Below are positions 1-27,056 of a stretch of DNA of 32,000 bases, in pieces. Below the pieces are notes generated by a model that saw only the letters and a program-made list of their open reading frames with translations, did not search any database and was not told where the DNA came from. Where the stretch lies: NCBI GenBank assembly GCA_963676105.1, contig OY781039.1:1170001-1202000 (forward strand). Direction: 5' to 3'. Made by a program: the position numbers and the translations under genes. Position 1 is the first letter of the stretch. Each line of letters opens with the position of its first letter. The DNA comes from Erysipelotrichaceae bacterium (GTDB lineage Bacteria; Bacillota_I; Bacilli_A; Erysipelotrichales; Erysipelotrichaceae).

Positions 1-158
1 CTATAAACGGCTTAATCCTATCTTTTATGCACCTTAAATATACTTGATTGACATAGAATTACATCAGAGTTCTGCTAGGAGGGGAAATTTAGGTGGAATC
101 GTAATTTTATTCATATGTAATAATGCATTCTCATGTTTATCTCAAACAATCCATTATC

Positions 159-437
159 TTACTTATTAATTGAATCCTTTAACTCATATAACGTAGCTTT
201 TTTTGTCGGTCTTCTATTAAAAATAGCTAAGTGAATAAGTAAGATTACAAAAAGTATAAACTGATTTAACCAATTCATCGATAACCAAAACCACCCACCA
301 TTAATAGCCACAACACTTGCGTTTGTATTATCAACATATTTGGCTAGATTATAGAATAGCGAAATTGAGTTAACAAAAGTTATTACACTTAAAATAAGCA
401 ATATTAAATCAACATCTTTAAAAAATCTCTTTACCAT
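159..437 (-). CDS. Small hypothetical membrane protein (92 aa, two predicted TM helices)
   Basis: ORF track. Two long hydrophobic stretches (LILLILSVITFV; FILFVILLIHLAIF). SD-like AAAGGAA just upstream of the ATG. It starts 10 nt after the stop of the upstream secreted-protein gene, so it is probably co-transcribed. No family recognised. Confidence 0.5.
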   Translation of the reverse strand: MVKRFFKDVDLILLILSVITFVNSISLFYNLAKYVDNTNASVVAINGGWFWLSMNWLNQFILFVILLIHLAIFNRRPTKKATLYELKDSINK

Positions 438-447
438 ATAATTCCTT

Positions 448-1131
448 TCAGTACCTTAAATGTGGATTACACAAACTAGATAATACTCCAAGATACCCCA
501 CATTGGGCACCCATCTTTCTAAATCCCATACTTTCTCAACTACGAGTTGTTTGTGGCACATATATTGATCATATAAACTACCATTGTCAATTTGAATCCC
601 AATATAAATCGTCTTCAATTCACTCCATGCTAAATTTGCTGCAAAATCAAGCACTCTAACTGATAGTTTAGGATCCAAACTATATGTCCAATAGTTATTT
701 CTTAAATGATATATATGCGAATAGAAATATTCATTTACAGTGCTTAAAGAAAATGTACTAAATACGTAAACATTTGAACTCGACACACTTACATTCTGTG
801 ATACTTCATCTAGTAAATCTTTCAAAGCTTCACTCTGTTCAAATTTATTATCTGACTGATTATAAATATATGATTCTAATCTTGAATTAACATCTTGTAT
901 CCATTTCTCGTTTTGAATAACAAAATCGCTAAGATCCTCTAATTTTAAGTTCTCTATTAAAACCATATCAGTGATTAATTGATCTCTATATTGAAATGTT
1001 TCATTATTTTCTTCTAAGATTGACTCTTCTTCCTTTGTATATAAATCTGGCATCAAAACTGTGCTCGCATTCACAGGACTAGCTAAACTAATAAAAAACA
1101 ATAATACAAATAAACTTTTTAAAACTTTCAT
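448..1131 (-). CDS. Secreted hypothetical protein with a C-terminal DUF2599-like domain (227 aa from the ATG at 1131)
   Basis: The ORF-track start at 1146 is a TTG. The ATG at 1131 (MKVLKSLFVLLFFISLASPVNAS) gives a canonical signal peptide and follows AAAGGAAG. The C-terminal segment ...AWSEL...DQYMCHKQL...WDLERWVPNVGY...LCNP resembles my recollection of the DUF2599 signature (Q..CH ... WNLE.wRP ... CNP). That call is unverified. Confidence 0.6.
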   Translation of the reverse strand: MKVLKSLFVLLFFISLASPVNASTVLMPDLYTKEEESILEENNETFQYRDQLITDMVLIENLKLEDLSDFVIQNEKWIQDVNSRLESYIYNQSDNKFEQSEALKDLLDEVSQNVSVSSSNVYVFSTFSLSTVNEYFYSHIYHLRNNYWTYSLDPKLSVRVLDFAANLAWSELKTIYIGIQIDNGSLYDQYMCHKQLVVEKVWDLERWVPNVGYLGVLSSLCNPHLRY

Positions 1132-1176
1132 AAATCTTCCTTTCAACTTAAAATCTTAAATTAAAAATATTTATAA

Positions 1177-1242
1177 CTAAACTCTTGGAATCTTATAATC
1201 AAATAACGATATTAACCATAATAGTAAATCTAAATCACCCAT
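1177..1242 (-). CDS. Unannotated 21-codon sORF (MGDLDLLLWLISLFDYKIPRV), a candidate signalling or regulatory peptide
   Basis: Hand-translated. The ATG at 1242 is preceded by GGGAGG (1252..1257) with 9-nt spacing, and by a minus-strand TATAAT at 1266..1271. TAG stop at 1177..1179, 45 nt before the secreted-protein ATG. Divergent from the HTH+TPR regulator. Too short for the ORF track, and coding status is unproven. Confidence 0.3.
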   Translation of the reverse strand: MGDLDLLLWLISLFDYKIPRV

Positions 1243-1279
1243 CTTTTTATTCCTCCCTTAGAATAATTATATTTTAAAT

Positions 1280-1289
1280 AATCATGATT
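1280..1289. promoter_or_regulatory. Perfect 10-bp palindrome AATCATGATT between divergent promoters (candidate operator)
   Basis: Read directly. It lies 9-18 nt upstream of the minus-strand TATAAT (1266..1271), where a -35 would be expected. It is also upstream of a plus-strand TTGATT(1306..1311)/TATAAT(1327..1332) pair, which has only a 15-nt spacer. Confidence 0.25.
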
Positions 1290-1316
1290 CTTGTCTATTC
1301 TTTTTTTTGATTTTAA

Positions 1317-2588
1317 ATGTTAAAGCGTATAATATTAGATAATATGAGCGACACTATATCAAATAATGGCTTTAACATTACAAAATTAATCATTGATCAA
1401 AGAAAACAGCTTAAATTATCTTTAAGAGAACTTTCTCAACTAACTAAATATAGTTATCAAACATTATCTAAATATGAAACAGGTGGTATTGAATTAAATA
1501 AGAACAATCGAGTAGTTCTATTTGAACACCTACACATAAATGCAGATGACGTTGATTATTTATCCAATGACTTTAAACAAGATTTAGACTTACTGTTTGA
1601 ATCGATTGTATATGACGAACAAGCTGAAATAAGTTCACTTTTCTCCAGAATTAAGAAAGCTGAAGAATATTTAGATTACACTAAATTTAGAGAAGAGTTT
1701 ATTACGCTAAAAATCATTGTATCAATCATCAATAATGAATCTATATCACAGGAAATGTTGAATGAATCACAATTCAATTCTTTTAAGCTATCTCTTCAAC
1801 AATGGATCTATGATTATATCGCTATTTATTACCTCAAAAACAATGATCTTATTAGGGCTGTAAAATATATTGATAAAGCGATATCTCTTGGGGTTCATGA
1901 ATCAAATGTTGGACTTGTCAATTACCATGCAGGAATCATCTATTCTGTCTATGGACAACTTTTAAAAGCTAGACACTATTTAGAAACAGCAGAAACTCAC
2001 TTCATAAAACAAAGAAACAATATAAGACTTATTAATCTTCAAATACAACTAACAACGGTTGAATCAAAACTAGGACAAGTCAATAAAGCACGAGCATCTT
2101 ATCTTAGACTGTTAAAAGACATCGAAAAAATTAATGATCACTATTCATTAAATGTTGTGTATCATAATCTATCCTGGTTGGAATATCGCCAAGAAAACTT
2201 TCAAGTTTCATTAGACTATCTAGATAAACTTGAGAAATCTCAAACATTAGACGAAAATGATCTCATCACCAAAATGTTATGTTTAACAGAACTTGAACAA
2301 TTTGATGAATCTGATTCTATTTACAAAAACAACACAATCTTGGATACAATGTATAAATTATATAGTGAGATTATTCACTTAGAAAATATCCATAAGATTG
2401 ATAAAAACTATGAAGCGAAATGTATGGAACTTTATCACATTATTAAAGATAAAAGAGACTTTGAAAATGTTGAAATCGTTATCTTCAAACTACTAGATTA
2501 CTACGAAATGAACCGTTTATATAAGAGTGCCTATGAACTCACCAAAGAACTTTATAGTTACATAGATTGGGTGTATCAACTCGATTAA
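1317..2588 (+). CDS. XRE-family HTH + TPR-like helical-repeat transcriptional regulator (RNPP-like: NprR/PlcR/Rgg type)
   Basis: N-terminal HTH_XRE signature (QRKQLKLSLRELSQLTKYSYQTLSKYETG). The remaining ~340 aa are helical with repeated A/Y/L patterns typical of TPRs (YYLKNNDLIRAVKYIDKAI; YHAGIIYSVYGQLLKARHYLETA). The 423-aa length matches NprR-size regulators. The start is uncertain: no SD precedes 1317, and the ATG at 1344 lies 12 nt after a TATAAT. Confidence 0.75.
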   Translation: MLKRIILDNMSDTISNNGFNITKLIIDQRKQLKLSLRELSQLTKYSYQTLSKYETGGIELNKNNRVVLFEHLHINADDVDYLSNDFKQDLDLLFESIVYDEQAEISSLFSRIKKAEEYLDYTKFREEFITLKIIVSIINNESISQEMLNESQFNSFKLSLQQWIYDYIAIYYLKNNDLIRAVKYIDKAISLGVHESNVGLVNYHAGIIYSVYGQLLKARHYLETAETHFIKQRNNIRLINLQIQLTTVESKLGQVNKARASYLRLLKDIEKINDHYSLNVVYHNLSWLEYRQENFQVSLDYLDKLEKSQTLDENDLITKMLCLTELEQFDESDSIYKNNTILDTMYKLYSEIIHLENIHKIDKNYEAKCMELYHIIKDKRDFENVEIVIFKLLDYYEMNRLYKSAYELTKELYSYIDWVYQLD

Positions 2589-2636
2589 TTTATGAACATC
2601 TTTTAAATTGATTTTTTCTTCTTTAAATTAAACAGT

Positions 2637-2669
2637 ACAAACAAAAGAGGTACTCGATTGAGAACCTCT
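2637..2669 (-). terminator. Rho-independent terminator, apparently the displaced original terminator of tRNA-Leu
   Basis: Stem AGAGGT(2646..2651)/ACCTCT(2664..2669) with an inner CTC/GAG pairing. On the minus strand it is followed by TTTTGTTTG (2637..2645). It lies directly after the tRNA-Leu 3'-end remnant at 2676..2700. Confidence 0.5.
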
Positions 2670-2675
2670 AATTTG

Positions 2676-2700
2676 CATACATGTTGCGCGTGACAGGATT
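2676..2700. repeat. Direct repeat (left att-like copy): remnant of the tRNA-Leu 3' end
   Basis: CATACATGTTGCGCGTGACAGGATT matches 4393..4417 (CATACATGGTGCGCGTGACAGGAAT) at 23/25 positions in the same orientation. Confidence 0.7.
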
Positions 2701-2832
2701 ATATGTTTTCACTGTCTTTGATTGATATAAGTTGCTTTTAATTGCTTAAACTAGTCTTTAATATGCTTTAATTTTACTAGATTGTTCTTAATTTGCATTA
2801 TAAACTCTTTGGCAGAGGGGATTTTGGGGGAA

Positions 2833-3675
2833 TTAGAAAAGACGAATTCTTTTAAGCATTAATTCTAGAATCACTATTGATTCACTAATATCAACATTTT
2901 TAGAATAAGCATTTTCGTTTTGATATCTATTCCATGAAGTCTTTACAATATTTGATTGCGATACGTCATTTAAAATAATCTTTGAATTATTCAACGCATC
3001 AAATGAGTTTCTATTATTAGTTGTATTAATTAAAGCTTCTCTTAATTGATCCCATTTAATTTCATCTTTTTTAATTTTGTAAAGTAAATATATGTCATAA
3101 AAATCTCTAGCTCGAGTGTTAATAACACCTCTTGATAAAATCGTTTCAATCTTTTCAGCAAGTATTGTCTCAAGCGTATAAGTATAAATGTTTACCCCTT
3201 TTTCACTAAACAAAAATTTATATTGATATTCAATTTCTTTAGGTGTTATTACATCCCCAGTAGTAATATCAATTTTTAAAGGCACAATAATCTTCTCATA
3301 AACCGCTTCAATAGAAACAGAGAAATTTTGATACTGATCTTTTTTTCGTATTGGAATGATAGATTTAAAATTGAAGAAAATTAAGTCATCAATTTTTATA
3401 GTAATAATATCTAAAACCATTTTTCTTATCGCTTCTTCCGTCATTGGATAATTGACAATAGTTGTATCCATATCCATAGTTGATCTTTCAGAAATACCAG
3501 ATAATGAGGCAACTAATAATCCACCTTTTAACACAAGATTCTTTTTATACTTTGACAGAGAAATGCGCTCAATTAATCTTTCGAACATGAAGACTTGTAA
3601 TAATTCTTGAGCTGAAATGTTTTTCTCAACCGACAAATTTCTTAAGTAACCCTTTAATTGTTCTGGTGACTTCAT
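2833..3675 (-). CDS. abiEii: AbiEii/AbiGii-family nucleotidyltransferase toxin (DUF1814)
   Basis: 280 aa. N-terminal LKGG motif followed by a MDMD acidic pair (LVLKGGLLVASL...RSTMDMDTT), typical of AbiEii nucleotidyltransferases. The ATGA overlap with the upstream antitoxin gene indicates translational coupling. Confidence 0.8.
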   Translation of the reverse strand: MKSPEQLKGYLRNLSVEKNISAQELLQVFMFERLIERISLSKYKKNLVLKGGLLVASLSGISERSTMDMDTTIVNYPMTEEAIRKMVLDIITIKIDDLIFFNFKSIIPIRKKDQYQNFSVSIEAVYEKIIVPLKIDITTGDVITPKEIEYQYKFLFSEKGVNIYTYTLETILAEKIETILSRGVINTRARDFYDIYLLYKIKKDEIKWDQLREALINTTNNRNSFDALNNSKIILNDVSQSNIVKTSWNRYQNENAYSKNVDISESIVILELMLKRIRLF

Positions 3676-4277
3676 GTAAGTACCTCGATATATTTGAAAA
3701 TTTCATTCTCTATTTTTAATTTTTTTGCATATTCCATCAATCTTCTTGAATTAATATTTTGGTTCTTAAAGTATTGATTCAATGCATCAGAGAATATTTG
3801 TGGATCTATGTCTTTTTTGTTCTTGATAATATCACAAATCGTTCGCTCGATATTGTAGCATCTTACTACCATACCCTGAGGTGATTTAATTTCTTCTAAA
3901 CCTAATTCAAATAATTCATGCTTGTCGTATTTAAATCGTATTTTCGCATTTTTAATTCTGTGAGTGTTATATCCTTTTTTAACCGTTAATGAAATAATAT
4001 TAGGAACTCTATTAGAATAACCATGAAAATACAAGGCTGTCCCTAGTGAATAAATAGAATTAGGTGCGTTTAATTGTAATAAATAATATTCATCAATAAT
4101 GTCATTTGCAAAAATATATACTCCCCTTTTAATATGAACTAAAACTCCGGATTCCACTAAACTAGATAATATTTCTCGTCTAATTCCTAATTCTTTTAAT
4201 TCTTTCGTAAATAAAACACCATTGTTTTGTTTAGCTTTTTTTCTTAATATTTCAATATTCTTTTCTTTTTGTACCAT
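3672..4277 (-). CDS. abiEi: AbiEi-family antitoxin / transcriptional autoregulator (type IV TA)
   Basis: 201 aa. The N-terminal winged-helix segment (GVLFTKELKELGIRREILSSLVESGVLVHIKRGVYIF) matches the AbiEi_4 pattern. It sits immediately upstream of abiEii and overlaps it by 4 nt. Confidence 0.8.
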   Translation of the reverse strand: MVQKEKNIEILRKKAKQNNGVLFTKELKELGIRREILSSLVESGVLVHIKRGVYIFANDIIDEYYLLQLNAPNSIYSLGTALYFHGYSNRVPNIISLTVKKGYNTHRIKNAKIRFKYDKHELFELGLEEIKSPQGMVVRCYNIERTICDIIKNKKDIDPQIFSDALNQYFKNQNINSRRLMEYAKKLKIENEIFKYIEVLT

Positions 4278-4366
4278 TGTGCTTTTATTTTATCATTTGT
4301 AAGCACGTTTGTACAATTATATTTACTTGGGTAACTCATAACCGCGTAACGTCACCATGGTACAAA
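4268..4366 (-). promoter_or_regulatory. abiEi promoter with three copies of a TTTGTAC(C)ATTGT-type motif (candidate AbiEi operator)
   Basis: 4268..4281 TTTGTACCATTGTG. A direct copy at 4308..4320, TTTGTACAATTAT (11/13). An inverted copy at 4353..4366 (13/14). Minus-strand extended -10 TGATAAAAT at 4287..4295, and a TTGTAC -35 at 4311..4316 inside the middle copy. The ATG (4277) lies only 9 nt after the -10 and has no SD. Confidence 0.4.
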
Positions 4367-4385
4367 AAAAGCCGAATAATTCGGC
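4364..4385 (-). terminator. Rho-independent terminator after tRNA-Leu
   Basis: GCCGAAT-A-ATTCGGC hairpin (4371..4385), followed on the minus strand by a run of 7 T (4364..4370). Confidence 0.6.
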
Positions 4386-4392
4386 ATTTCTT

Positions 4393-4417
4393 CATACATG
4401 GTGCGCGTGACAGGAAT
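4393..4417. repeat. Direct repeat (right att-like copy) covering the last 19 nt of tRNA-Leu plus 6 nt of flank
   Basis: See 2676..2700; 23/25 identity. Confidence 0.7.
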
Positions 4418-4483
4418 CGAACCTGCACGGGTCACCCCGCTAGATCCTAAGTCTAGTGCGTCTGCCAGTTTCGCCACACGCGC
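4399..4483 (-). tRNA. tRNA-Leu (anticodon TAG), class II with a long variable arm, CCA encoded
   Basis: Reverse complement GCGCGTG..CTAGA-CTTAGGA-TCTAG..GGGGTGACCCGTG..CAGGTTCGATTCCTG-TCACGCGC-ACCA folds as a cloverleaf. Acceptor stem GCGCGTG/CACGCGC. 85 nt. Confidence 0.9.
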
Positions 4484-4495
4484 AAATGCTAGTAA

Positions 4496-4523
4496 ATTAT
4501 AACATAAACATTGTTTATGACAA
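4496..4523 (-). promoter_or_regulatory. Sigma-A-type promoter for tRNA-Leu
   Basis: Minus strand: TTGTCA (4518..4523), a 16-nt spacer, then TGT-TATAAT (extended -10; hexamer 4496..4501). It lies 12 nt upstream of the tRNA 5' end. Confidence 0.55.
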
Positions 4524-4531
4524 ATATAAAT

Positions 4532-4951
4532 TTAGTCTTTTTCAAAGATTAATAATGAACTCTTATTATCAAGCAAAATCAATTGATTATTATCTATTTC
4601 AAAACGATTCACTTGCGTTAATAAATCATAGTATTGTAACTCTAAGTTATTTAAATCAGGATCCATACTTGCCATTTCAGTATGGAATATATCAGAAAAT
4701 TCTATAGAATCATTTTTTATGATAATGGCTCCACCATAATGATTAACAGCTGATGTACCTGATATTTCTCCATCCTTATCAATTATTAAAGTAATTCTAC
4801 CTTTTGATAAAATATCAGTATTTATATTTCCATCAATTAGATGATATTCACCGATTATTTCTTGGGGAATATTGTTAGTGAAAAAAATTGTATAAACAAA
4901 AAACAACAATACTATGCTTATGAATACTAAAGAAAGTTTCTTCATATTCAT
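4532..4951 (-). CDS. META-domain (HslJ-like) membrane-anchored protein
   Basis: 139 aa. N-terminal hydrophobic anchor (LSLVFISIVLLFFVYTIFF). The pattern GEISGTSAVNHYGGAI...IEFSDIFHTEMASM...LQYYDLL..VNRFEIDNNQLILLD fits the META domain pattern, with Ser replacing the usual Cys positions. Confidence 0.7.
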   Translation of the reverse strand: MNMKKLSLVFISIVLLFFVYTIFFTNNIPQEIIGEYHLIDGNINTDILSKGRITLIIDKDGEISGTSAVNHYGGAIIIKNDSIEFSDIFHTEMASMDPDLNNLELQYYDLLTQVNRFEIDNNQLILLDNKSSLLIFEKD

Positions 4952-4986
4952 ATCATGACATAAATTGTTGTTTTATTTAAGCATTA

Positions 4987-5850
4987 TTATTTTTGAGAAC
5001 GAACGTATGCGACAGCTTCTAAGCCAGCTGTGCAACCTTCACCAACTGCCTTAGCAATTTGCATTAAGCCTGGTGTGCAGTCGCCCGCTGCAAATAGACC
5101 TGGTACATTAGAGGCTTGTTTTTCATCAACAATAATTTTATTCTTTTCGACTAGTGCCCCCATTTTAAGTGCTAAGTCAGTAGCGCTAGCTGATCCTATA
5201 GCCACAAACACTCCCGCTACATCTATCACTTCACCTGTTTCAAGTCGAACACCTTTAACTGTGTTTTCTCCAACAATTTCAGTAATTTTATCAGTCAGAA
5301 TTTTAACGCGTTCATCAAAGTGACCAGTTGCTTCTAATCCATTCGTAAATACAATAACTTGATCCGCAACTTCAACAAGTTCATGAGCTTCTTGAGCAGC
5401 ATAATCTGCATTTCCTAATACCGCTACAATCTTCTTACGATAGAAGAAAGCATCACAAATAGCACAATAAGAAACACCTTTGCCTTCATATTCTTTAATC
5501 CCTTTTATTGGCAAGGATGCACGAGGGGAACCTGTTGCTAAGATGACAGACTTTGTTTCATATTTTGCTTGATTAGTAGACACTTCATATCCACCCATCA
5601 TCGCATAACTAACACCTGTTACCTCTTCTGTTTTAATTTCAATATCTAGCTTTTCAGCTTGATCAAAACCCTTTTGAAGCAGTTCAGGACCTGTTATTAG
5701 TTCGAAACCAAAGTAGTTGGCAATCTTATCAGTTTTGGCGAGTGCACCACCATCTTTCCCGATGATAAGCACATTCATATTTGCTCTTTTTGCATAGACT
5801 GCAGCTTGAATTCCAGCTGGTCCTTTTCCACATACTATAACGTCATACAT
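4987..5850 (-). CDS. Thioredoxin-reductase-like FAD flavoprotein with a CxxC centre but no recognisable NADPH-binding motifs
   Basis: 287 aa. FAD GxGxxG motif (VIVCGKGPAG), redox CAICD, C-terminal GD motif (LFAAGDC). Where TrxR has VIGGGNSA and HRRD, this protein has VLGNADYA and FTNG. SD AAGGGGA. Confidence 0.85.
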   Translation of the reverse strand: MYDVIVCGKGPAGIQAAVYAKRANMNVLIIGKDGGALAKTDKIANYFGFELITGPELLQKGFDQAEKLDIEIKTEEVTGVSYAMMGGYEVSTNQAKYETKSVILATGSPRASLPIKGIKEYEGKGVSYCAICDAFFYRKKIVAVLGNADYAAQEAHELVEVADQVIVFTNGLEATGHFDERVKILTDKITEIVGENTVKGVRLETGEVIDVAGVFVAIGSASATDLALKMGALVEKNKIIVDEKQASNVPGLFAAGDCTPGLMQIAKAVGEGCTAGLEAVAYVRSQK

Positions 5851-5920
5851 ATAAGTTCTGTCCCCTTATTTTTCTTGTCTATCATACACTAAAATTATTA
5901 TAAAAGAAAAGAAGATGATT

Positions 5921-5949
5921 ACAAATAAAAAGATATCCGAAGATATCTT
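5921..5949 (-). terminator. Rho-independent terminator ending the peptide-transport/amidohydrolase operon
   Basis: Perfect 8-bp stem AAGATATC-CGAA-GATATCTT (5930..5949), followed on the minus strand by TTTTTATTTGT. Confidence 0.7.
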
Positions 5950-5952
5950 TAA

Positions 5953-7140
5953 CTAATCTTTATTTAAATACATAATTGCTGATTCAGCTAAAATTGCTGA
6001 AGCTTTTGATAAAACTGTTTCATCAATATCAAACTTTGGATGATGGTGCGGTACATCAAATCCAAGTGATTCTTTCTTACCACCAATAAACATGAAACAA
6101 CCAGGTACTTTTTCAATGAAATAGGAATAATCTTCACTTCCCATGATTGGATTTTCCATTTCAATCAGTTTATCAGCTCCATATAATTCAGTAACGGCCG
6201 CACGAACAATATCACTCGCTCCTTTAGCGTTAATAGTTGTTGGATAAAGGTTAGTATAGATTAACTCATAACTAGCTCCATGTGATTCGACAACACCTTT
6301 AACTAATTGATCAATCATCTTAGGAAGTTGAGCTCTAAGTTCAGGATTAACTGAGCGAATACTTCCTTTCATATTTGCAGTATCAGGGATAATATTATTA
6401 GCTGTTCCTGCATTCATCATAGTAATCGAAAAGACTAAGTTTTCAAACGCACTAATCTTACGATTCATAATTGCCATCAAGTTATTATAGACTTGAACCA
6501 TCACATAGACTGGATCAATTGTTGTTTCAGGTGATGATGAATGGCCACCTTTCCCTTGGATTTTTATCTCAAAGAAATCTGGTGCTGCCATCATAGCTCC
6601 GTCTTTAACCATAACCATTCCTTCAGGTAGTGTTGATTGAACATGTGCACCGAATGCAAAGTCTACTTTTGGATTTTCAAGGACCCCTTCTTTAATCATT
6701 CTTTCTGCACCGCCTGGTCCCTCTTCAGCAGGTTGAAAAACAAACTTAACGTTGCCACTAAACTTATCAGTCATTTTTGAAAGAATTCGAGCAGTACCTA
6801 GTAACCACGCCGTATGCGCATCATGACCACATGCATGCATTAGTCCTGGATTTTGTGATTTATAAGGTACATCACTATCTTCATCCATCCTTAAGCAATC
6901 CATGTCAGCACGTAATAATACGGTTTTACCTGGTTTTTTTCCTTTTAGTAAACCAACAACCCCTGTTACACCTACTTCAGTTTGAACGTCCATCCCTAAA
7001 CGCTTTAACTCTTTAGCTACAATTCCAGCTGTACGAACTTCTTCGAGTCCTGGTTCTGGATGCATATGAAAGTCACGTCTAAACTCAACTAGACTACCTT
7101 GTTCAAGGCTTGCCAATTTTAAAATTTCGTCTTTATACAT
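5953..7140 (-). CDS. M20D-family amidohydrolase (N-acyl-amino-acid / hippurate hydrolase type), paralog 1
   Basis: 395 aa. MHACGHDAH metal-binding motif, FQPAEEGPGGA and GKGGHSS, typical of the Ama/HipO/HyuC group. SD GAGGAG. Confidence 0.9.
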   Translation of the reverse strand: MYKDEILKLASLEQGSLVEFRRDFHMHPEPGLEEVRTAGIVAKELKRLGMDVQTEVGVTGVVGLLKGKKPGKTVLLRADMDCLRMDEDSDVPYKSQNPGLMHACGHDAHTAWLLGTARILSKMTDKFSGNVKFVFQPAEEGPGGAERMIKEGVLENPKVDFAFGAHVQSTLPEGMVMVKDGAMMAAPDFFEIKIQGKGGHSSSPETTIDPVYVMVQVYNNLMAIMNRKISAFENLVFSITMMNAGTANNIIPDTANMKGSIRSVNPELRAQLPKMIDQLVKGVVESHGASYELIYTNLYPTTINAKGASDIVRAAVTELYGADKLIEMENPIMGSEDYSYFIEKVPGCFMFIGGKKESLGFDVPHHHPKFDIDETVLSKASAILAESAIMYLNKD

Positions 7141-7154
7141 ATCTATATTCTCCT

Positions 7155-8345
7155 CTAGAAATCTTGATTTAAATAGAGTAAGGCTGTCTCTGCTAAAATT
7201 GCAGATCCTTTACTCAAAACCGTTTCATCAATATCAAATTTTGGATGATGATGTGGTACATCAAAACCCAAATCTTCTTTTTTAGCACCAATAGATATAA
7301 AACTACCTGGTACTTTCTCTAAAAAATATGAGAAATCTTCTCCACCCATCGAAGATTGCGTCATTTCATTAATTTTATCTTCGCCATATAGCTCAGTAAC
7401 AGCTTCTCGGACTAAATCTGTAGAAGCCTTATCGTTGATTGTGGCTGGATATAAATGATTATATTCAAAGGTATAGCTAGCTCCATGTGATTCAACAACA
7501 CCTTTAATCAGTTTTTCAAACATTTCAGGTAATTGTGCTCTTAGTTCTGGATTAACCGAGCGAATACTTCCTCCTAAGCTTGCGCTATCTGGAATAACAT
7601 TATTGGCACTACCTGCTTGAAATTTTGTAATTGAAATAACAAGATTATCAAATGCACTAATTTTGCGGTTCATAATGGTCATAAGGTTACTATATACTTG
7701 ATGACCAATTGATAGTGGGTCAATACATTCTTCAGGACGTGAAGAATGACCACCTTTACCTTGTATTGTAAGATCAAAAAAGTCAGGTGCAGCTGTCATT
7801 GGCCCATCTTTAATATTGACATAACCTTCTTTAACTTGCGACGAAATATGCGCACCAAAAGCGACATCAACATGTGGATTTTCCATCACACCTTCCGCGA
7901 TCATTCTTTCAGCACCACCTGGTCCCTCTTCAGCTGGTTGAAAAACAAATTTTATATTTCCACTAAATTTGTCTGTCATTTGCGATAGAATGCGAGCTGT
8001 TCCTAATAACCAAGCCGTATGGGCATCATGTCCGCAGGCGTGCATTAAACCAGGATTTTGAGATTTATAAGGAACATCATTTAACTCATCCATTTTTAAA
8101 CAATCCATATCAGCTCTAAGCAAGACTGTTTTACCGGGTTTATGACCTTTTAAAAGACCAACAACACCTGTTACTGCAATGCCTGTTTGTACTTCTAAAC
8201 CTAATTTTTTTAATTCTTTTGCGACAATGCCAGCTGTCCTAAACTCTTCAAGTCCAGGTTCTGGAAACATGTGGAAATCTCGCCGAAATTCGACGAGATC
8301 TCCTTGAATATTTTCAGCATATTTAAGAATTTCTTCTTTAAACAC
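7155..8345 (-). CDS. M20D-family amidohydrolase, paralog 2 (GTG start)
   Basis: 396 aa, collinear with paralog 1 and roughly three-quarters identical by eye. The start codon is GTG, 3 nt after the SBP gene stop and preceded by AGGTGA. The N-terminus MFKEEIL aligns with MYKDEIL of paralog 1. Confidence 0.9.
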   Translation of the reverse strand: MFKEEILKYAENIQGDLVEFRRDFHMFPEPGLEEFRTAGIVAKELKKLGLEVQTGIAVTGVVGLLKGHKPGKTVLLRADMDCLKMDELNDVPYKSQNPGLMHACGHDAHTAWLLGTARILSQMTDKFSGNIKFVFQPAEEGPGGAERMIAEGVMENPHVDVAFGAHISSQVKEGYVNIKDGPMTAAPDFFDLTIQGKGGHSSRPEECIDPLSIGHQVYSNLMTIMNRKISAFDNLVISITKFQAGSANNVIPDSASLGGSIRSVNPELRAQLPEMFEKLIKGVVESHGASYTFEYNHLYPATINDKASTDLVREAVTELYGEDKINEMTQSSMGGEDFSYFLEKVPGSFISIGAKKEDLGFDVPHHHPKFDIDETVLSKGSAILAETALLYLNQDF

Positions 8346-8348
8346 TAA

Positions 8349-9959
8349 TTATTCACCTAATTTCCATTCCCATACTGCAAAGTTACCTAAAGGAATATCT
8401 TCCATACCGATACTATCACCTAAGTATGATGTGTATGCATAGTCATTGAATGTCGCAACATATTCAATAAATGGAGGTTCTTCTAACCAAGTTTGTTGGT
8501 AATCCATCATAATTTGAGTACGTTCTTCATCAGATGTAGCTGCCATAAATGCATCATAGTAATCATCCCAAGTATCATCAGCTGTATTGATAAGTGTAGC
8601 TGCATCATTTGTTAAAAGATTACGTAAATACATTGGGTTTGTTTGGAAGTTCATATTAACTAAACCAATCGATGTTGAACCATCATAGAAACCAGCAAAC
8701 ATAGTTGCAGCTTCAGTAACTTGTACTTCAACAGGTAAACCAATATCAACTAAGTTTTGAGCAATAATGGTTGCACATTTTTCACGAGCACCTGGAGGCG
8801 TTGAGAATGTGATTGTTTCAGATAAATCAATCGCACCATCAGCTGCTGCTTCAGCAATTAGAGCTGCCGCTGTCTCTTGATCAAATGTAGGAACCATAAT
8901 TTCATTAAAGTATGCTGAGTTTGCAGGAATTGGTCCCTCAATTGGTGCTGCACGACCTAACATATTCGCAACTGCTTCACGATCAATCGCTAAGTCAATT
9001 GCTTGACGAATTCTAACATCAGAATAAACAGCTTGGTTAACAAATAACATATAAGGTTGATCAGGTGTTTCAGGATAGAAAATAGTTAAATGATCAACTG
9101 CTTCAAAGGATGAAATATCATCACTTGATAATGCTGGATAAGCCATATCAACATCGCCTGCAATCATCGCAGAAGCCATGTTAGAAACAGCCATAACTGT
9201 AATTTTAAACTTACCAAATTCAGCAACACCTAAATAATAATCAGGATTTGCTGCCATTACGATTTCACTACCAGCAATTTGACTTTCAAATAGTAATGGT
9301 CCATTTGTAAGCGGGTTATTCCAATACTCTAAACTTGCATAAGTACTTGGATCAGTTCCTTCAAGTTCGTGTTTTGGTAAAGCTAAATAGTAATTAATAT
9401 ATGAAGGGAAAGTAACTGCTTCATTGATTGGTGAATCAAAAGTATAAACTAAAGTATAGTCATCAATAGCTTCAACACCTAAAGTTGTCCCATCTGCATT
9501 ACCAGATGTATCAGTCCCCGTAATTATACTGTAATAAGATTTTTGATCCACCACATTCATTGGATCAGTAATTAATTCTGCTGCAAAGACATAATCTTCA
9601 GCTGTAACAGGTTCTCCATCACTCCATACAGCTGCATCATTTAAATAAAATGTAGCTGTTAAGCCATCTTCTGAAATTTCCCAATCTTTAGCGGCTCTTT
9701 CAGTAATGTTACCTGCACCATCAACGTAAGTTAAACGATCATATAATAGACCTAAAACAAGACCACTATAGTAACCACCTGAACCACCATTGTATGGTAC
9801 TAAATCTTTCCATGCACTACCCATTGCGAGTGTAACAACCGTATCAGAATAGTCAACTTCTTCACTTGTTGTGTCACTTGACGAAGATGAACAAGCAGTG
9901 AGTAATGAAATACTTAAGACTAAAATCATACTAATTTTGAATAACTTTGATAATTTCAT
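8349..9959 (-). CDS. Peptide/nickel-family (family 5) ABC substrate-binding lipoprotein
   Basis: OppA/DppA-like size and composition. The preferred start is the ATG at 9959 (MKLSKLFKISMILVLSISLLTAC), preceded by GAGGAG with 7-nt spacing. Lipobox LLTAC. The ORF-track start at 9974 adds 5 aa and has no SD. Confidence 0.9.
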   Translation of the reverse strand: MKLSKLFKISMILVLSISLLTACSSSSSDTTSEEVDYSDTVVTLAMGSAWKDLVPYNGGSGGYYSGLVLGLLYDRLTYVDGAGNITERAAKDWEISEDGLTATFYLNDAAVWSDGEPVTAEDYVFAAELITDPMNVVDQKSYYSIITGTDTSGNADGTTLGVEAIDDYTLVYTFDSPINEAVTFPSYINYYLALPKHELEGTDPSTYASLEYWNNPLTNGPLLFESQIAGSEIVMAANPDYYLGVAEFGKFKITVMAVSNMASAMIAGDVDMAYPALSSDDISSFEAVDHLTIFYPETPDQPYMLFVNQAVYSDVRIRQAIDLAIDREAVANMLGRAAPIEGPIPANSAYFNEIMVPTFDQETAAALIAEAAADGAIDLSETITFSTPPGAREKCATIIAQNLVDIGLPVEVQVTEAATMFAGFYDGSTSIGLVNMNFQTNPMYLRNLLTNDAATLINTADDTWDDYYDAFMAATSDEERTQIMMDYQQTWLEEPPFIEYVATFNDYAYTSYLGDSIGMEDIPLGNFAVWEWKLGE

Positions 9960-10013
9960 TTTGAATCTCCTCATTTTTGTTTATATCTATTTTGTCTGGA
10001 TAAAAATTTTATC

Positions 10014-11030
10014 TTATGATTTTGAGAGCTCTTCTGCATAAGGACAAGCTACTTTGTGCCCTCCGCCTAAATCCTCAAGATTAGGCTCACTAAGTGAACA
10101 AGCCTCTTGTGCAAAAGGACATCTTGTATGAAAGCGACAACCCAGTGGCGGAAAAAGTGGACTCGGTACATCCCCCGTAAGAATTATACGGTCACGCTTT
10201 TTCGTCGCATCAGGAATTGGAATCGCTGACAACAAGGCTTTTGTATACGGATGTAAAGGATTGCTAAAGATTTGATCTTTGGTTCCAAATTCAACTAGCT
10301 TACCCAAATACATAACCGCAACTTTGTCACAAATATAACGAACAACTGACATATCATGAGAGATAAACAGATAAGAAACTCCTGTTTCTTTTTGAGCATC
10401 TTTCATGAGATTCAATACTTGAGATCGTACTGATACATCAAGCGCTGATACAGGTTCATCACATAAGATAAAGGATGGTTTAATAACCAATGCTCTTGCG
10501 ATAACTACACGCTGTCTTTGTCCCCCGGACAATTCATGCGGTAGCTTCTCAAACTGATAATCCCCCAAACCTACATAACGAAGAATTTCTTGAGCTTTCT
10601 CAATCTTTTCTTCTTCGCTTCCCATCTTAAACGCATCAAGTGGTGCTTTCACCAAATCAATGATGGTTTTATGTGGGTCTAAAGAGGCGTAAGGATCTTG
10701 AAATATAATTTGCATCTCCTTACGGAAAGGACGGAACTTTTTGAAGTTATAATCAACAATATTTTCACCCTTGAAATACATTGATCCTTCAGTGGCTGGT
10801 TGTAAACCTAAGATGGCTCGACCAATCGTTGATTTACCACATCCACTTTCTCCAACAAGTCCAACTGTCTCACCAGGGTAGATGTCCAGACTAACACCAT
10901 CTACGGCCTTTACAGACTGTTTTCCTTTTCCTATTCCTCCGCGAACTGGAAAGTGTTTCTTTAAATTAAACAGTGATACTAGAGGTTCATCTTTTGGGAA
11001 ACTCGTTTCTCTTTTTGTCATTTTTGTCAC
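10014..11030 (-). CDS. Oligo/dipeptide ABC transporter ATP-binding protein (OppF/DppF type)
   Basis: Walker A GESGCGKST, signature LSGGQRQR, Walker B ILCDEP. The C-terminal Cys-rich oligopeptide-transporter extension is present. Confidence 0.9.
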   Translation of the reverse strand: MTKMTKRETSFPKDEPLVSLFNLKKHFPVRGGIGKGKQSVKAVDGVSLDIYPGETVGLVGESGCGKSTIGRAILGLQPATEGSMYFKGENIVDYNFKKFRPFRKEMQIIFQDPYASLDPHKTIIDLVKAPLDAFKMGSEEEKIEKAQEILRYVGLGDYQFEKLPHELSGGQRQRVVIARALVIKPSFILCDEPVSALDVSVRSQVLNLMKDAQKETGVSYLFISHDMSVVRYICDKVAVMYLGKLVEFGTKDQIFSNPLHPYTKALLSAIPIPDATKKRDRIILTGDVPSPLFPPLGCRFHTRCPFAQEACSLSEPNLEDLGGGHKVACPYAEELSKS

Positions 11031-11039
11031 TCTCCCTTC

Positions 11040-12023
11040 TCATGCTTTATCGAAAAGGAAACACCTAACTTCATGTCCTTTTTCGATTTCTACTAAGGCT
11101 GGTTTTTCAACCTTACAGCGGTCAAAACATTTCGCGCAACGATTCGAGAAACGACACCCCACTGGCATTTCACTCAGTGATGGAACAGTTCCAGGAATCG
11201 AGTTTAGTTTTTCCATATCCTTATCAACACGTGGTAATGATTCAAGTAAACCATTTGTGTAAGGATGTTTTGGTTTTGAGAAGATTGTTTTTGCACTTGC
11301 GTATTCAACAACTTCTCCAGCGTACATAACCATGACATAGTCGGACATTTCTGCCACGACTCCCATATCATGGGTAATCAGTAATATTGCGGTATTCATC
11401 TCTTCTTGAAGATCTTTCATTAGATCTAAAACTTGAGCCTGAATGGTGACGTCTAGTGCCGTAGTTGGTTCATCCGCTATCAGTAAATCCGGTCTTGATG
11501 ATAATGCCATCGCAATCATGACTCTTTGACGCATCCCACCAGATAACTGATGAGGATATTCATGCATCCTTTGTTCAGGTGCAGGAATTCCAACTTTTTC
11601 TAAGAACTCTCGCGATTTTTCCCAGGCTTCTTTTTTACTCATTTTGTTATGAGCTAGAAACATTTCAACTAATTGATGACCAACTCTATGAGCTGGATTT
11701 AATGAAGTCATTGGTTCTTGAAATATCATTGATATTTTCTTACCTCTAACTTCTCGCATTTCCTTATGACTCAATTTTGTTATGTCTTGTCCTTGAAAAT
11801 TAATACTTCCATTGGAAATAATGCTTGTCTGTTGAGGCAATAAACGAAGGATTGTATTAGCGGTAACCGATTTACCACATCCAGATTCACCCACGATACC
11901 TAAGATTTCACCTTTATGAACTTTAAATGTGACATCTTCAATCGCAGTGAGTTTTGATTTTTTACCTGTTCTAAATTGAACTTGTAATTGTTGAACATCT
12001 AAGACAACATCTGTCATATTCAA
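11040..12023 (-). CDS. Oligo/dipeptide ABC transporter ATP-binding protein (OppD/DppD type)
   Basis: Walker A GESGCGKS, signature LSGGMRQR, Walker B LIADEPTTALD, and a C-terminal oligopeptide-type extension. Confidence 0.9.
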   Translation of the reverse strand: MNMTDVVLDVQQLQVQFRTGKKSKLTAIEDVTFKVHKGEILGIVGESGCGKSVTANTILRLLPQQTSIISNGSINFQGQDITKLSHKEMREVRGKKISMIFQEPMTSLNPAHRVGHQLVEMFLAHNKMSKKEAWEKSREFLEKVGIPAPEQRMHEYPHQLSGGMRQRVMIAMALSSRPDLLIADEPTTALDVTIQAQVLDLMKDLQEEMNTAILLITHDMGVVAEMSDYVMVMYAGEVVEYASAKTIFSKPKHPYTNGLLESLPRVDKDMEKLNSIPGTVPSLSEMPVGCRFSNRCAKCFDRCKVEKPALVEIEKGHEVRCFLFDKA

Positions 12024-12032
12024 TCCTCCTTT

Positions 12033-12899
12033 CTATATCCTCTTCATTTTTGGATCAAGCGCATCACGCAATCCTTCACCGACAAAATTGATACATACAA
12101 TTGTGATTACCAACAAACTTCCAGCTGGAATCCATATCCACCAGCGTTGCGTAAGCACAGCTAAATTTGTAGCTGCTTGAATGATATTCCCCCAAGATGC
12201 TTCTGGTGGTTGTATCCCTGCACCTAAGAAACTTAAAGCAGATTCAGTAATCATTGCGCTTGATGTTAGAAAGGCAAGTGACACCCAAAGTGGAGCAATT
12301 GAGTTTGGCATAACGGTTTTAAAGATAATCTTCAAATCGCTACTCCCTATCGCTCTTTCAGCTTCAATAAATTCTTTACTTCTAACCGATAAGACATTCC
12401 CATAAATTAGTTTTGCGGTGGAAGGCCATCTCAGAATTCCAATAAGGAAAATAATAATCGCGACATTTGATCCAAAGACCGCAACCACTACAAGGATTAA
12501 AACCATTGCGGGAAATGATTGAAAGATATCAGCTGATCTCATAACAAATGTTTCAACTCGTCCTCTGTAATAGCCAGCTAAGGTCCCTAGTGGTAATCCA
12601 ACAAGAACACTGATAATCATGGCTGAAACACCAATCATAATTGAATTACGTCCACCATATATAAGTCTGGCTAACATATCTCGTCCTAACTCATCTGTCC
12701 CTAAGATATGAATATCATTAGGTGCAGTTTTGAAGGCCATTTTATCAATCTCATATGGATCTAAATCCATAATCAGTGGTAAAACAACAACTAATATGAC
12801 TTCTATTAAAACAACTATTAAACCAAACATCGCCATTTTATGGTGACTGAAGTTTTTGATAAGCTCTTTTAATTGTCTATGTTTATCTTTTTTCATCAC
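12033..12899 (-). CDS. Peptide ABC transporter permease (OppC/DppC type)
   Basis: 288 aa polytopic protein. N-terminal LGTDELGRD motif and the EAA-loop region (EAERAIGSS) typical of DppC/OppC. Confidence 0.9.
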   Translation of the reverse strand: MMKKDKHRQLKELIKNFSHHKMAMFGLIVVLIEVILVVVLPLIMDLDPYEIDKMAFKTAPNDIHILGTDELGRDMLARLIYGGRNSIMIGVSAMIISVLVGLPLGTLAGYYRGRVETFVMRSADIFQSFPAMVLILVVVAVFGSNVAIIIFLIGILRWPSTAKLIYGNVLSVRSKEFIEAERAIGSSDLKIIFKTVMPNSIAPLWVSLAFLTSSAMITESALSFLGAGIQPPEASWGNIIQAATNLAVLTQRWWIWIPAGSLLVITIVCINFVGEGLRDALDPKMKRI

Positions 12900-12911
12900 T
12901 TCAGTCCTTTC

Positions 12912-13865
12912 TTAATCAAATCGAATTTTTGGATCTAGGAATGCATAAACTAAATCAATGATTAAGCTTATAACCAAAACCGCTCCCGAGATAAGTACAG
13001 TCACTCCCATAATGGTGTTATAGTCACGTTGCGCAATTGATAGAATCATGAGTGATCCCATTCCAGGCCAAGCAAAGACTTGTTCTGTAACTACTGCTCC
13101 CCCAACAAGCAAAGGAACTGTTGTCCCAATGGTTGCGACAATCGGAATCCAAGCATTTCTCAATATGTGTTTAACAATAACTTGAAATTCAGATAAACCT
13201 TTCGCACGAGCTGTTTTAACATATTCTTCATTCATGACATTGAGTACACTTCCACGTGTTTGTTTTACAAACGTTCCTAACATTTGAATAACTAAGACAA
13301 AACAAGGAAGTATTAAATGCCTTAACAAATCTGCGAAATCTCCACCACCATTGGAAGCATACATTCCCATTGCTGGTAAGAGTTTAAATTGAATCGCAAA
13401 TAGATAAACCAAAACTAATGCGACAAAGAAGTTTGGTGCTGCCGCACCCAAGAAGGAAAGAGCTGATGAGAGATTATCCCAAAAGGAATAAGGTCTCATT
13501 GCGGCAAGCACACCAATCGGAATCGCAATTAGAAGTGAAACTAATAATGCACTACCCGTTAATGTAATGGTTGGTACAATACGTTCTTTTAGTAATACCC
13601 ACACTGGCATATTAGTTCTAGTAGAAATCCCTAAGTTACCTTGAAGAACATCACCTAACCAAATAAAGTACCTTACAATAACTGGTTTATCCAAACCATA
13701 TTGGATAATTAAAGCTTGTTCTGCTTCAGCTGTAATATCCCCAGCTGATTTGATAATATCAACTGGACTACCTGGCGCTGCATTACTTAACATAAAGACA
13801 ACGAAAGTAATGATAAAGAAGGTTGGTATTATTTGAAATAATCTTTTTAATATATAACGTCCCAT
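12912..13865 (-). CDS. Peptide ABC transporter permease (OppB/DppB type)
   Basis: 317 aa. N-terminal MGRYILKRL...PGSPV, and the EAA-loop YVKTARAKGLSE typical of DppB/OppB. Confidence 0.9.
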   Translation of the reverse strand: MGRYILKRLFQIIPTFFIITFVVFMLSNAAPGSPVDIIKSAGDITAEAEQALIIQYGLDKPVIVRYFIWLGDVLQGNLGISTRTNMPVWVLLKERIVPTITLTGSALLVSLLIAIPIGVLAAMRPYSFWDNLSSALSFLGAAAPNFFVALVLVYLFAIQFKLLPAMGMYASNGGGDFADLLRHLILPCFVLVIQMLGTFVKQTRGSVLNVMNEEYVKTARAKGLSEFQVIVKHILRNAWIPIVATIGTTVPLLVGGAVVTEQVFAWPGMGSLMILSIAQRDYNTIMGVTVLISGAVLVISLIIDLVYAFLDPKIRFD

Positions 13866-13877
13866 ACACTTCCTCCT

Positions 13878-22576: not shown

Positions 22577-22587
22577 ATCCCTTTTTT
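22561..22587. terminator. Bidirectional terminator between the convergent GNAT and response-regulator genes
   Basis: AAAAAA-GGGA-AAATAAA-TCCC-TTTTTT (stem AAGGGA/TCCCTT). Confidence 0.6.
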
Positions 22588-26892: not shown

Positions 26893-27056
26893 TAGCATTC
26901 CCCAAAAACAGTAATTATGGCAATAAAAACTGTTTATTTATATATATTATACATCTATAAGTATTTATTTTTGCACACTCCACAGTAAAGATACCTTTAT
27001 TACGACGATATAATAACTTTATTTATATGTATTAAGTTATTTAATAAAAAGTTGTT

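Follow-up and report, generated by a model that had tools for sequence, protein, structure and literature searches.

A candidate peptide quorum-sensing cassette of the RRNPPA type in an Erysipelotrichaceae bacterium

The DNA analysed here, hereafter the window, is a 32,000-nucleotide (nt) stretch from an uncultured Erysipelotrichaceae bacterium of gut type (contig OY781039.1, positions 1,170,001 to 1,202,000, numbered below from its first letter). Near its left end a regulator gene is transcribed away from an unannotated small open reading frame (sORF) of 21 codons, behind which stand the genes of a secreted protein and of a small membrane protein. We consider it likely that this locus is a four-gene peptide quorum-sensing cassette, a candidate of the RRNPPA type. 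To our knowledge, nearly all RRNPPA systems so far described belong to Bacillales, Lactobacillales, a few clostridia or the mobile elements of these. The searched literature gave no paper that ties RRNPP systems to Erysipelotrichales, and the supplements of the RRNPP_detector paper, whose files are possibly incomplete, hold no Erysipelotrichaceae entry and no matching peptide. The genes and the ribosome-binding site of the sORF are the following.

1344..2588, plus strand: receptor gene, 414 amino acids; XRE-type helix-turn-helix (HTH), helical linker bundle and superhelix of tetratricopeptide repeats (TPRs), from Pfam, profile and model
1177..1242, minus strand: unannotated 21-codon sORF encoding MGDLDLLLWLISLFDYKIPRV, the proposed pheromone propeptide
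1252..1257, minus strand: Shine-Dalgarno (SD) sequence GGGAGG, 9 nt ahead of the sORF ATG, read in the sequence
448..1131, minus strand: secreted protein (the cargo), 227 amino acids, beginning 45 nt past the sORF stop; signal peptide MKVLKSLFVLLFFISLASPVNA at 1066..1131
159..437, minus strand: small protein with two transmembrane segments (2-TM protein), 92 amino acids, 10 nt past the cargo; segments 5-29 and 52-76 are hydrophobic

A sequence-only reading of this DNA had taken the regulator, the sORF and the two genes downstream for a quorum-sensing-type unit. Its positions for the sORF, the GGGAGG, the TATAAT and palindrome of the promoter, the secreted-protein gene and the 2-TM gene were all recovered, and the unit itself is supported by the frame kept in relatives and by a receptor related to NprR and Rap. 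The XRE HTH and the TPR repeats of the regulator were recognised there as well, but the length of 423 amino acids, counted from an ATG at 1317, does not stand. We place the start at 1344 because the ATG at 1317 reads ATA in three relatives and all metagenomic homologues were called from the 1344 position, at 414 amino acids.

The DNA neighbourhoods of regulator homologues were retrieved, 29 loci in all (L001-L029). Regulator identity to the window is 76-90% in 12 close loci, 48% in L014, 39% in L010, 38% in L024, 36% in L023, 32% in L025/L026 and 31-34% in L016/L017/L018/L020. The regulator is of a rare kind: among 5.8 billion proteins the search found just six close homologues, and an exhaustive hidden Markov model search with it brought up 8 representatives below 1e-30 and 103 below 1e-3, for the most part HTH-TPR proteins of ~410 amino acids. 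A scan of genome contigs for the cassette found one locus. The same scan of viral contigs found none, so that carriage of the cassette by phage is without any sign.

The sORF and its peptide

We checked the survival of the sORF frame in relatives that bear the regulator. All 12 close loci have the frame at 21 codons, with its stop at the same position and a strong SD before it; the frame is also kept in the 48% relative L014 (MEELNFIYWLISLFDNKYPKI, likewise 21 codons, at 74% nucleotide identity), and related sORFs occur at 31-38%. The distance between the divergent start codons of regulator and sORF is 101 nt in the window and 100-103 nt in all close relatives and L014. A strong SD (GGGAGG, GGCAGG, GGGGGAGG, AAGAGGTG, AAAGGAG or TAGGAGGGGG) precedes the sORF in every relative. 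Among the seven distinct alleles of the close clade, variable sites fall 6/1/9 at codon positions 1/2/3, and the substitutions are synonymous or conservative (L/I, D/N, V/I, Y/N), plus one P/L. The N-terminal half of the peptide is more changeable (MGNFDLLG... in L027/L029) than WLISLFDYKIPR[IV].

The distant relatives define the part of the peptide that is held. The product reads MINQFYCLIQLFESVMPKF in L025/L026; in L024 it begins MNGFYGFMVELLELVLP... and has reached ...ELLELVLP where the contig stops; in L023, where the start is ambiguous, it ends ...IIILESVLPKI; and L010 shows an SD and ATG GAA ATA before its contig ends. The four loci at 31-34% encode a 35-residue product of the MKKLMVVTLLCLLSFGFVSIGSPVVSPMDWVYPKI type, with variable residues at 10 of 22 positions in the N-terminal part versus 3 of 13 in the C-terminal part. 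The relatives' products thus span 19-35 amino acids, and all complete versions share the C-terminus [D/E]-x-x-hydrophobic-P-[K/R]-[V/I/F]-stop. We propose from this pattern that the active part of the window peptide is its C-terminal ~7 residues, DYKIPRV. In a collection of 15 billion proteins none of the 21-residue peptides was ever called as a gene; for the 35-residue peptide the same collection has entries from more than 50 contigs, named 'hypothetical protein'.

The entire spacer between regulator and cargo is highly conserved among the close relatives, which would suit an origin of the conservation in a DNA or RNA element (an operator, or structure in the 5' untranslated region) and not in a translated frame. 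We give this explanation very little credence. The distribution of substitutions over codon positions, nearly all of them synonymous or conservative, the 21 codons that persist in L014 at its level of nucleotide identity, and the SD at the right distance everywhere all speak for translation, and clades too diverged for their DNA to align encode the same amino-acid motif with other codons. Rfam, run over positions 1..5000, matched only the tRNA and nothing in the sORF spacer. On these alignments we judge the sORF to be a conserved coding sequence.

A canonical RRNPP propeptide has a basic-hydrophobic N-terminus followed by a conserved C-terminal tail, and the five-part RRNPP(A) signature comprises a propeptide of 10-100 amino acids with a secretion signal of the Sec/SPI type or SHP-like for PptAB, a receptor of 250-500 amino acids, TPRs and neighbouring genes (PMC10075063). 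Four of the five are seen at this locus, namely the small peptide, the receptor length, the TPRs and the adjacency of the genes. As for the secretion signal, the 35-residue peptide of the sister clade has, by inspection, MKK and a hydrophobic core; the N-terminus of the window peptide is not basic, and the peptide has a net charge of -1. The earlier remark that the acidic N-terminus (MGDLD...) is unlike that of a canonical short hydrophobic peptide (SHP) was apt. By comparison of the sequences, the window's clade retains the conserved tail but appears to have lost the basic signal. The two sister clades, one with an apparently Sec-type-signal propeptide and one with an apparently signal-less propeptide, form a natural pair for asking how leaderless pheromones leave cells.

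The sORF product could also be a real peptide that is not a signal, either a cis-acting leader or a small membrane or chaperone-like partner of the cargo, with the TPR regulator sensing something else. Its acidic N-terminus and hydrophobic core LLLWLISLF are atypical of known pheromone propeptides, the cargo operon begins with the sORF, which lies only 45 nt ahead of the cargo gene and with no terminator between, and the sORF persists beside a truncated regulator. Nevertheless, we hold such a role to be quite unlikely. The part that is conserved is the C-terminal heptad and not the hydrophobic core, and the heptad is kept though the genes downstream differ (DUF2599 cargo, unrelated cargoes, an 87-residue zinc-ribbon membrane protein). 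Moreover, with 11 residues the hydrophobic stretch falls short of a transmembrane helix, the 45-nt spacer has no attenuator structure, and the peptide of the 31-34% clade looks like a classical propeptide that bears a signal peptide.

Two smaller features of the distant sORFs were seen. In L023 (~1520-1560, minus strand) the ATG that follows the SD is out of frame with the C-terminus and runs into a stop after 4 codons, for which the use of TTG as start, a frameshift or a fault in the assembly could account. In L016, L017, L018 and L020 a hairpin with a C-rich loop (CCCCCC) is conserved ~40-75 nt past the stop of the 35-residue sORF, and its stem arms vary yet stay complementary (ATATGG..CCATAT versus AGAATGC..GCATTCT). 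It has no T-run and is therefore not an obvious terminator.

The receptor and its known relatives

Pfam finds HTH_3 (residues 27-59), TPR_2 (2.9e-7) and TPR_12 in the regulator, HTH_3 and TPR_2 above their cut-offs, and NCBIfam gave no match past a weak HTH one and none to an Rgg family. A single-sequence phmmer search of PDB returned no RNPP protein; only profiles reached NprR. The profile used for this match (A3) was made from 13 sequences of the window's own clade, down to 23% identity, and a broader profile (A4) was set aside because its distant members could themselves be NprR-like. Against PDB, the clade profile matched the TPR domain of NprR (5dbk, 4gpk) with E values of 4e-11 and 1e-10 in one stretch, residues 66-399; RapJ came next, weakly. 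The AlphaFold2 model, built from a 66-sequence alignment, is all-helical (predicted local distance difference test 93.6, predicted TM-score 0.88), with helices at 12-63 (HTH) and 67-129 (bundle) and then paired helices up to 410. In the Foldseek search of PDB the top 19 matches are all Rap and NprR structures, with TM-scores of 0.76-0.78 for RapJ-PhrC (4gyo), 0.75 for phi3T Rap and 0.74-0.76 for NprR-NprX (4gpk), and apo NprR also listed. AimR follows at high root-mean-square deviation, PlcR is far lower, and no Rgg structure is among the top 50. Sequence identity in the alignments to Rap, NprR and AimR is 10-16%, and ~14% to any solved RNPP protein. The regulator does not group with TPR regulators that bind no peptide; among solved structures, profile and fold both place it closest to NprR and Rap, and by the same evidence the receptor is of the NprR/Rap type and not of the Rgg type.

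The profile alignment, which is a sequence alignment and no superposition, sets window Y194/H195 on NprR Tyr193/Asn194, N275 on Asn275, and N305/D306 on Asn306/Asp309. Only 7 positions reach a conservation of at least 90% across the 66 family members, and two of these are Y194 and N275. In NprR, Asn275, conserved in all RNPP proteins, hydrogen-bonds with the peptide backbone, and Arg126 of the KRD motif holds the Asp of the peptide and its C-terminal carboxylate (PMC3763537). We class the regulator, on profile, fold and alignment, as a relative of NprR and Rap and not as an NprR, because Arg126 is absent and identity is so low. Another regulator, P0112, is 97% identical to that of the window and differs only at the N- and C-termini. 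It probably belongs to a second paralogous cassette of the same genome, which suggests that a second regulator copy could act in trans.

Within the RRNPPA clan, nine non-degenerate TPRs are found in NprR, Rap and QssR. The window system resembles NprR-NprX of the Bacillus cereus group in a receptor of ~420 amino acids with an N-terminal XRE HTH, a helical bundle and ~nine TPRs, in the fold and in the conserved equivalents of Tyr193, Asn275 and Asn306/Asp309, in a likely signal that would be a heptapeptide-sized fragment containing Asp, and in the two DNA sites expected for a tetramer. It differs from NprR in its low identity, in the missing Arg126/KRD and in its host, an Erysipelotrichaceae and not one of the Bacillales. 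Its propeptide gene is upstream and divergent, whereas that of NprR is directly downstream and co-oriented; no plus-strand frame of at least 20 amino acids, that is, no downstream propeptide of the NprR type, is present in 2589..2780. NprX is a Sec-type propeptide of ~43 amino acids, whereas the window propeptide has 21 residues, no evident Sec-type signal and a C-terminus of the form P-[K/R]-hydrophobic. Rap proteins, known from Bacillus and from its phages and plasmids and the best structural matches, share the core of a three-helix bundle plus TPRs, and Rap-Phr the mature peptide at the C-terminus; unlike the window receptor, Rap has no HTH and acts on response regulators, and phr lies downstream and is Sec-exported (PMC9765709).

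The gene layout is like that of Rgg-SHP and RopB-SIP. In these streptococcal systems, as proposed for the window, a small unannotated gene of a hydrophobic peptide lies divergent and upstream, as the first gene of the regulated operon, the peptide is without a Sec signal, its active part is C-terminal (SHP), and the output is an adjacent secreted protein (RopB-SpeB). The divergent position and the conserved C-terminus of an SHP are seen in the window, the basic N-terminus is not, and Rgg itself (~285 amino acids, five degenerate repeats, TIGR01716) is unlike the nine-TPR NprR/Rap fold of the receptor. The leaderless communication peptide of RopB/SIP is a mature signal encoded by a frame of ~8 codons, made without leader or processing (PMC10518010); the window sORF, while sharing the layout, has 21 codons, an acidic and variable N-terminal half and an invariant C-terminal half. 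RRNPP propeptides are normally exported by Sec or PptAB (PMC10075063, PMC9765709). In the nine-TPR systems of Bacillales the pheromone gene is reported to lie directly downstream of the receptor and export to be by Sec, and divergent, non-Sec peptides are a trait of Lactobacillales (Rgg/PrgX) (PMC9765709). The window family mixes the two patterns and so joins an NprR/Rap-type receptor to an Rgg/SHP-like gene layout. If true, it brings peptide quorum sensing to uncultured Erysipelotrichaceae.

Promoter geometry and a model of the switch

The regulatory features between the two divergent genes are the following.

1266..1271, minus strand: -10 hexamer TATAAT of the sORF/cargo promoter, invariant in close relatives
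1291..1300, minus strand: box 1, GAATAGACAA, with TAGACA at 1292..1297, exactly 20 nt upstream of the -10
1346..1353, plus strand: box 2, AGCGACAC, inverted partner of box 1, overlapping regulator codons 2-4
1280..1289, no strand: palindrome AATCATGATT, within the 20-nt spacer, not conserved

The -10 stands at the same position in all clades, as TATAAT, TACAAT or TATACT. TAGACA is a 5/6 match to TTGACA, and the earlier statement that the promoter has no convincing -35 holds at canonical spacing only, since TAGACA lies 20 nt from the -10. We propose, from its conservation, that box 1 is a binding site of the regulator or a misplaced -35. The arrangement box-20 nt-TATAAT is kept in the window and the 12 relatives compared (TAGACA; TCGACA in one locus) and, counted by eye, recurs as TAGACA-20 nt-TATAAT in L024, GCGACA-20 nt-TACAAT in L025/L026 and TAGAAA-20 nt-TATACT in L023; the 32-kb window has a single occurrence of it, where chance would give 0.03. 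In the 12 relatives compared, TTGTCGC is found at 56-57 nt from TAGACA, on the regulator side. The inverted pair also occurs once in the window against 0.03 expected, and once each in 19 of the 29 retrieved loci, within the regulator-sORF spacer at every position compared with gene coordinates. In the close clade, regulator codons 2-4 (M-S-D-K) under box 2 are conserved as DNA and the residues after them vary; in the 31-34% clade box 2 lies upstream of the regulator ATG.

The palindrome had been proposed as the site of an activator. It is perfect only in the window and L001/L011, reads AGTTATGATT or AATCACGATT in the other close relatives and is absent from distant ones, and we reject it as the operator because it is not conserved. 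A spacer of 20 nt between -35 and -10 is too long for good use by unaided sigma-A and therefore fits an activator-dependent promoter; this part of the earlier reading is retained, with a conserved operator that differs from the palindrome. The NprR-NprX tetramer is predicted to hold two DNA sites at its opposite ends (PMC3763537). Two sites ~57 bp apart fit such a tetramer; that the receptor binds them is inferred.

We envisage the following switch. The 21-residue product would be made from a promoter with a good -10 and a -35-like TAGACA that is too distant for unaided sigma-A. The peptide would exit the cell, its variable N-terminal half would be cut off, and a C-terminal fragment around DYKIPRV would be re-imported, the window itself encoding an Opp-type importer. 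The fragment may then dock in the concave TPR groove of the 414-residue HTH-TPR receptor. The loaded receptor, probably a higher oligomer as in NprR, would occupy the two inverted GACAA boxes ~57 bp apart, of which one flanks the sORF promoter and the other lies at the 5' end of the receptor gene itself. The operon of sORF, cargo and membrane protein would thereby be switched on, giving positive feedback and output together, and expression of the receptor would also be modulated. As output, the operon would yield a protein secreted by Sec, with a constant signal peptide and a mature domain that is exchanged from strain to strain, and after it one or two small membrane proteins. The model supplies a specific candidate signal that can be synthesised, DYKIPRV with its variants, as well as an operator of defined geometry.

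The same parts could work with the opposite sign, the apo receptor on the two boxes repressing or looping the sORF-cargo promoter and the peptide releasing it. The AimR/arbitrium peptide acts by peptide-triggered release, and the PrgX/cCF10 switch is similar. Box 2 overlaps codons 2-4 of the regulator in the close clade, a distance of ~57 bp suits looping, and the -10 is a perfect TATAAT with a 5/6 match to a -35 upstream; PrgX-type two-site regulation has also been cited as a model for NprR (PMC3763537). We nonetheless regard repression as unlikely, since the 20-nt spacer, fixed in all clades and too long for unaided sigma-A, goes better with activation, and NprR, the closest homologue of known mechanism, is a peptide-dependent activator (PMC3763537).

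Several observations weigh against the quorum-sensing interpretation as a whole. The N-terminus of the window peptide is not rich in Lys or Arg, and no known export route (Sec, PptAB) is evident for it. In the close relatives the flanking non-coding spacer is as conserved (83-94%) as the sORF (86-91%), so nucleotide identity there cannot single out the sORF, and for this reason the decisive evidence on the sORF was taken from distant relatives. L027 and L029 retain the sORF and the cargo without an adjacent intact regulator. The essential Arg126 of NprR aligns with window Asn131 (K-R-D against N130-N131-gap) and is not conserved, therefore recognition of the peptide must here differ from that in NprR. 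Finally, none of the cargoes has a recognisable toxin, bacteriocin or defence family in Pfam, PDB, the 5.8 billion proteins or PADLOC.

The regulator's own ends were also inspected. No SD is recognisable for it (1298-1343). A TATAAT at 1327-1332, which is TATTAT in L002, L008 and L009, lies only 11 nt ahead of its ATG, and the mRNA leader may therefore be very short or absent. As its own promoter, -35/-10 candidates with 15-nt spacers were considered and none was assigned convincingly. The 3' end carries one more feature.

2646..2669, plus strand: terminator-like hairpin AGAGGTaCTCgattGAGaACCTCT past the regulator stop, read in the sequence and also present in L027; not called by the terminator scan because its T-run is short

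The proposed secreted output and its genomic setting

The C-terminus of the cargo is a DUF2599 domain (7e-11, above the Pfam cut-off), in agreement with the sequence-only reading. The DUF2599 protein, proposed there as the output of the system, is what the window carries, but it is only one among many cargoes that replace each other between loci. The signal peptide MK[VI]LKSLFVLLFFISLASPV[NS]A is 85-94% identical at the nucleotide level among close relatives and is still recognisable in L014 (MKLFKSIFVMLFFLSLATPVHA). From the cleavage site on, identity over the 300 nt past the signal peptide is at background, 57-61% (global alignment of AT-rich DNA). The mature cargo is visibly different in at least 8 loci (the window with DUF2599, L001, L002, L008, L009, L013, L014 and L015), and BLASTP on two cargo pairs gave no significant similarity past the signal peptide.

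Where the retrieved DNA extends far enough, one or two small hydrophobic proteins (61-92 amino acids) are encoded behind the cargo, those of L001, L002 and L014 having 61-64. The 92-residue 2-TM protein of the window, possibly an immunity or partner protein, has no family match in Pfam or NCBIfam. L001 (1319-2191) and L002 (1322-2253) carry an identical 61-residue 2-TM protein behind unrelated cargoes of 162 and 248 amino acids, and L001 has an extra 64-residue hydrophobic protein between cargo and 61-residue protein. The shared 61-residue protein resembles, by its placement, an orphan immunity gene. In the 31-34% clade an 87-residue membrane protein follows the sORF and replaces the secreted cargo (L016 3300-3563, minus strand); it has a CxxC...CxxC zinc ribbon at the N-terminus and, towards the C-terminus, a long hydrophobic region.

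Pfam gave no match for seven other cargo or partner proteins, and the DUF2599 cargo had no informative relatives in PDB or the 5.8 billion proteins. The literature mentions DUF2599 only in passing, with no known function, in line with the earlier statement on the output proteins. The layout resembles quorum-controlled bacteriocin/immunity loci or Sec-dependent polymorphic-toxin loci, with a fixed export signal, unrelated C-terminal domains, small membrane-protein genes behind and, in L001 and L002, a leftover membrane-protein gene in common. It departs from them in its cargoes, none of which has a match in any known family of toxins, bacteriocins or defence proteins; the likeness is an analogy. 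The polymorphic secreted cargo suggests density-controlled competition between strains, which would give DUF2599 a first functional context. In our view these comparisons give good support to a candidate new subfamily of RRNPPA systems, whose propeptide is encoded upstream and divergently and is apparently without a signal, and whose secreted output is polymorphic.

The cassette sits in a variable array that adjoins tRNA-Leu (4399..4483), and its right boundary is a repeat.

2676..2850, no strand: ~170-nt repeat, starting with a 22/23 copy (2676..2698) of the tRNA-Leu 3' end

The copied tRNA-Leu 3' end reads CATACATGTTGCGCGTGACAGGA; it also stands at 4393-4415 in the window, and a diverged partial copy of the repeat lies at 1..110. 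L027 has repeat sites at 8801-8825, 10339-10504, 12573-12757 and 14266-14325, between other modules. The modules so separated are the quorum-sensing cassette, AbiEi/AbiEii, RelB/ParE, AAA_14/DUF4143 and an SLFN/AlbA_2 ATPase, in a tandem array by tRNA-Leu. In the window the repeat separates the cassette from the AbiEi/AbiEii module (2833..4277, minus strand), whose AbiEii toxin, a nucleotidyltransferase (2.9e-32), and AbiEi antitoxin thus lie between two tRNA-derived repeat copies. No integrase was seen within positions 1-8000, and PADLOC gave no hits.

With this setting, a broader interpretation can be put forward tentatively, as a possibility on which we would not insist. One receptor family would use two kinds of propeptide, a classical Sec-type one of 35 residues and an acidic, signal-less one of 19-21 residues with the same C-terminal code, implying a new route of export and processing for nine-TPR RRNPPA systems. 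The switch would drive strain-specific secreted effectors shuffled by recombination, with the signal peptide as the recombination handle, and membrane immunity proteins, the whole unit being carried in a tRNA-Leu-linked array.

In L027 (9034-10363) and L029 (615-1872) about 17-23 codons of the regulator are left before it breaks off, and homology to the window ends at 1395. Both retain the promoter, the sORF, unbroken (MGNFDLLGWLISLFDYKIPRI), the DUF2599 cargo and the 2-TM gene; the cargo is split into 144 + 94 amino acids in L027 and is intact in L029.

An Opp-type importer is encoded at 8349..13865 (SBP_bac_5, two permeases, two ATPases with oligo_HPY), and a route of peptide import therefore exists. 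Flanked by three M20 peptidases (whole region 5953..15311, minus strand), this Opp/Dpp-type importer is probably a housekeeping system, of the kind that RRNPP pheromones use. The remainder of the window is chromosomal core, with ribosomal proteins S9 and L13, transporters and a two-component system. At 22586-26898 (minus strand), unrelated to the cassette, lies the gene of a 1102-residue hybrid histidine kinase with an N-terminal periplasmic domain of the phosphonate-binding type and two receiver domains, followed by that of a receiver-HD (HD_5) response regulator.

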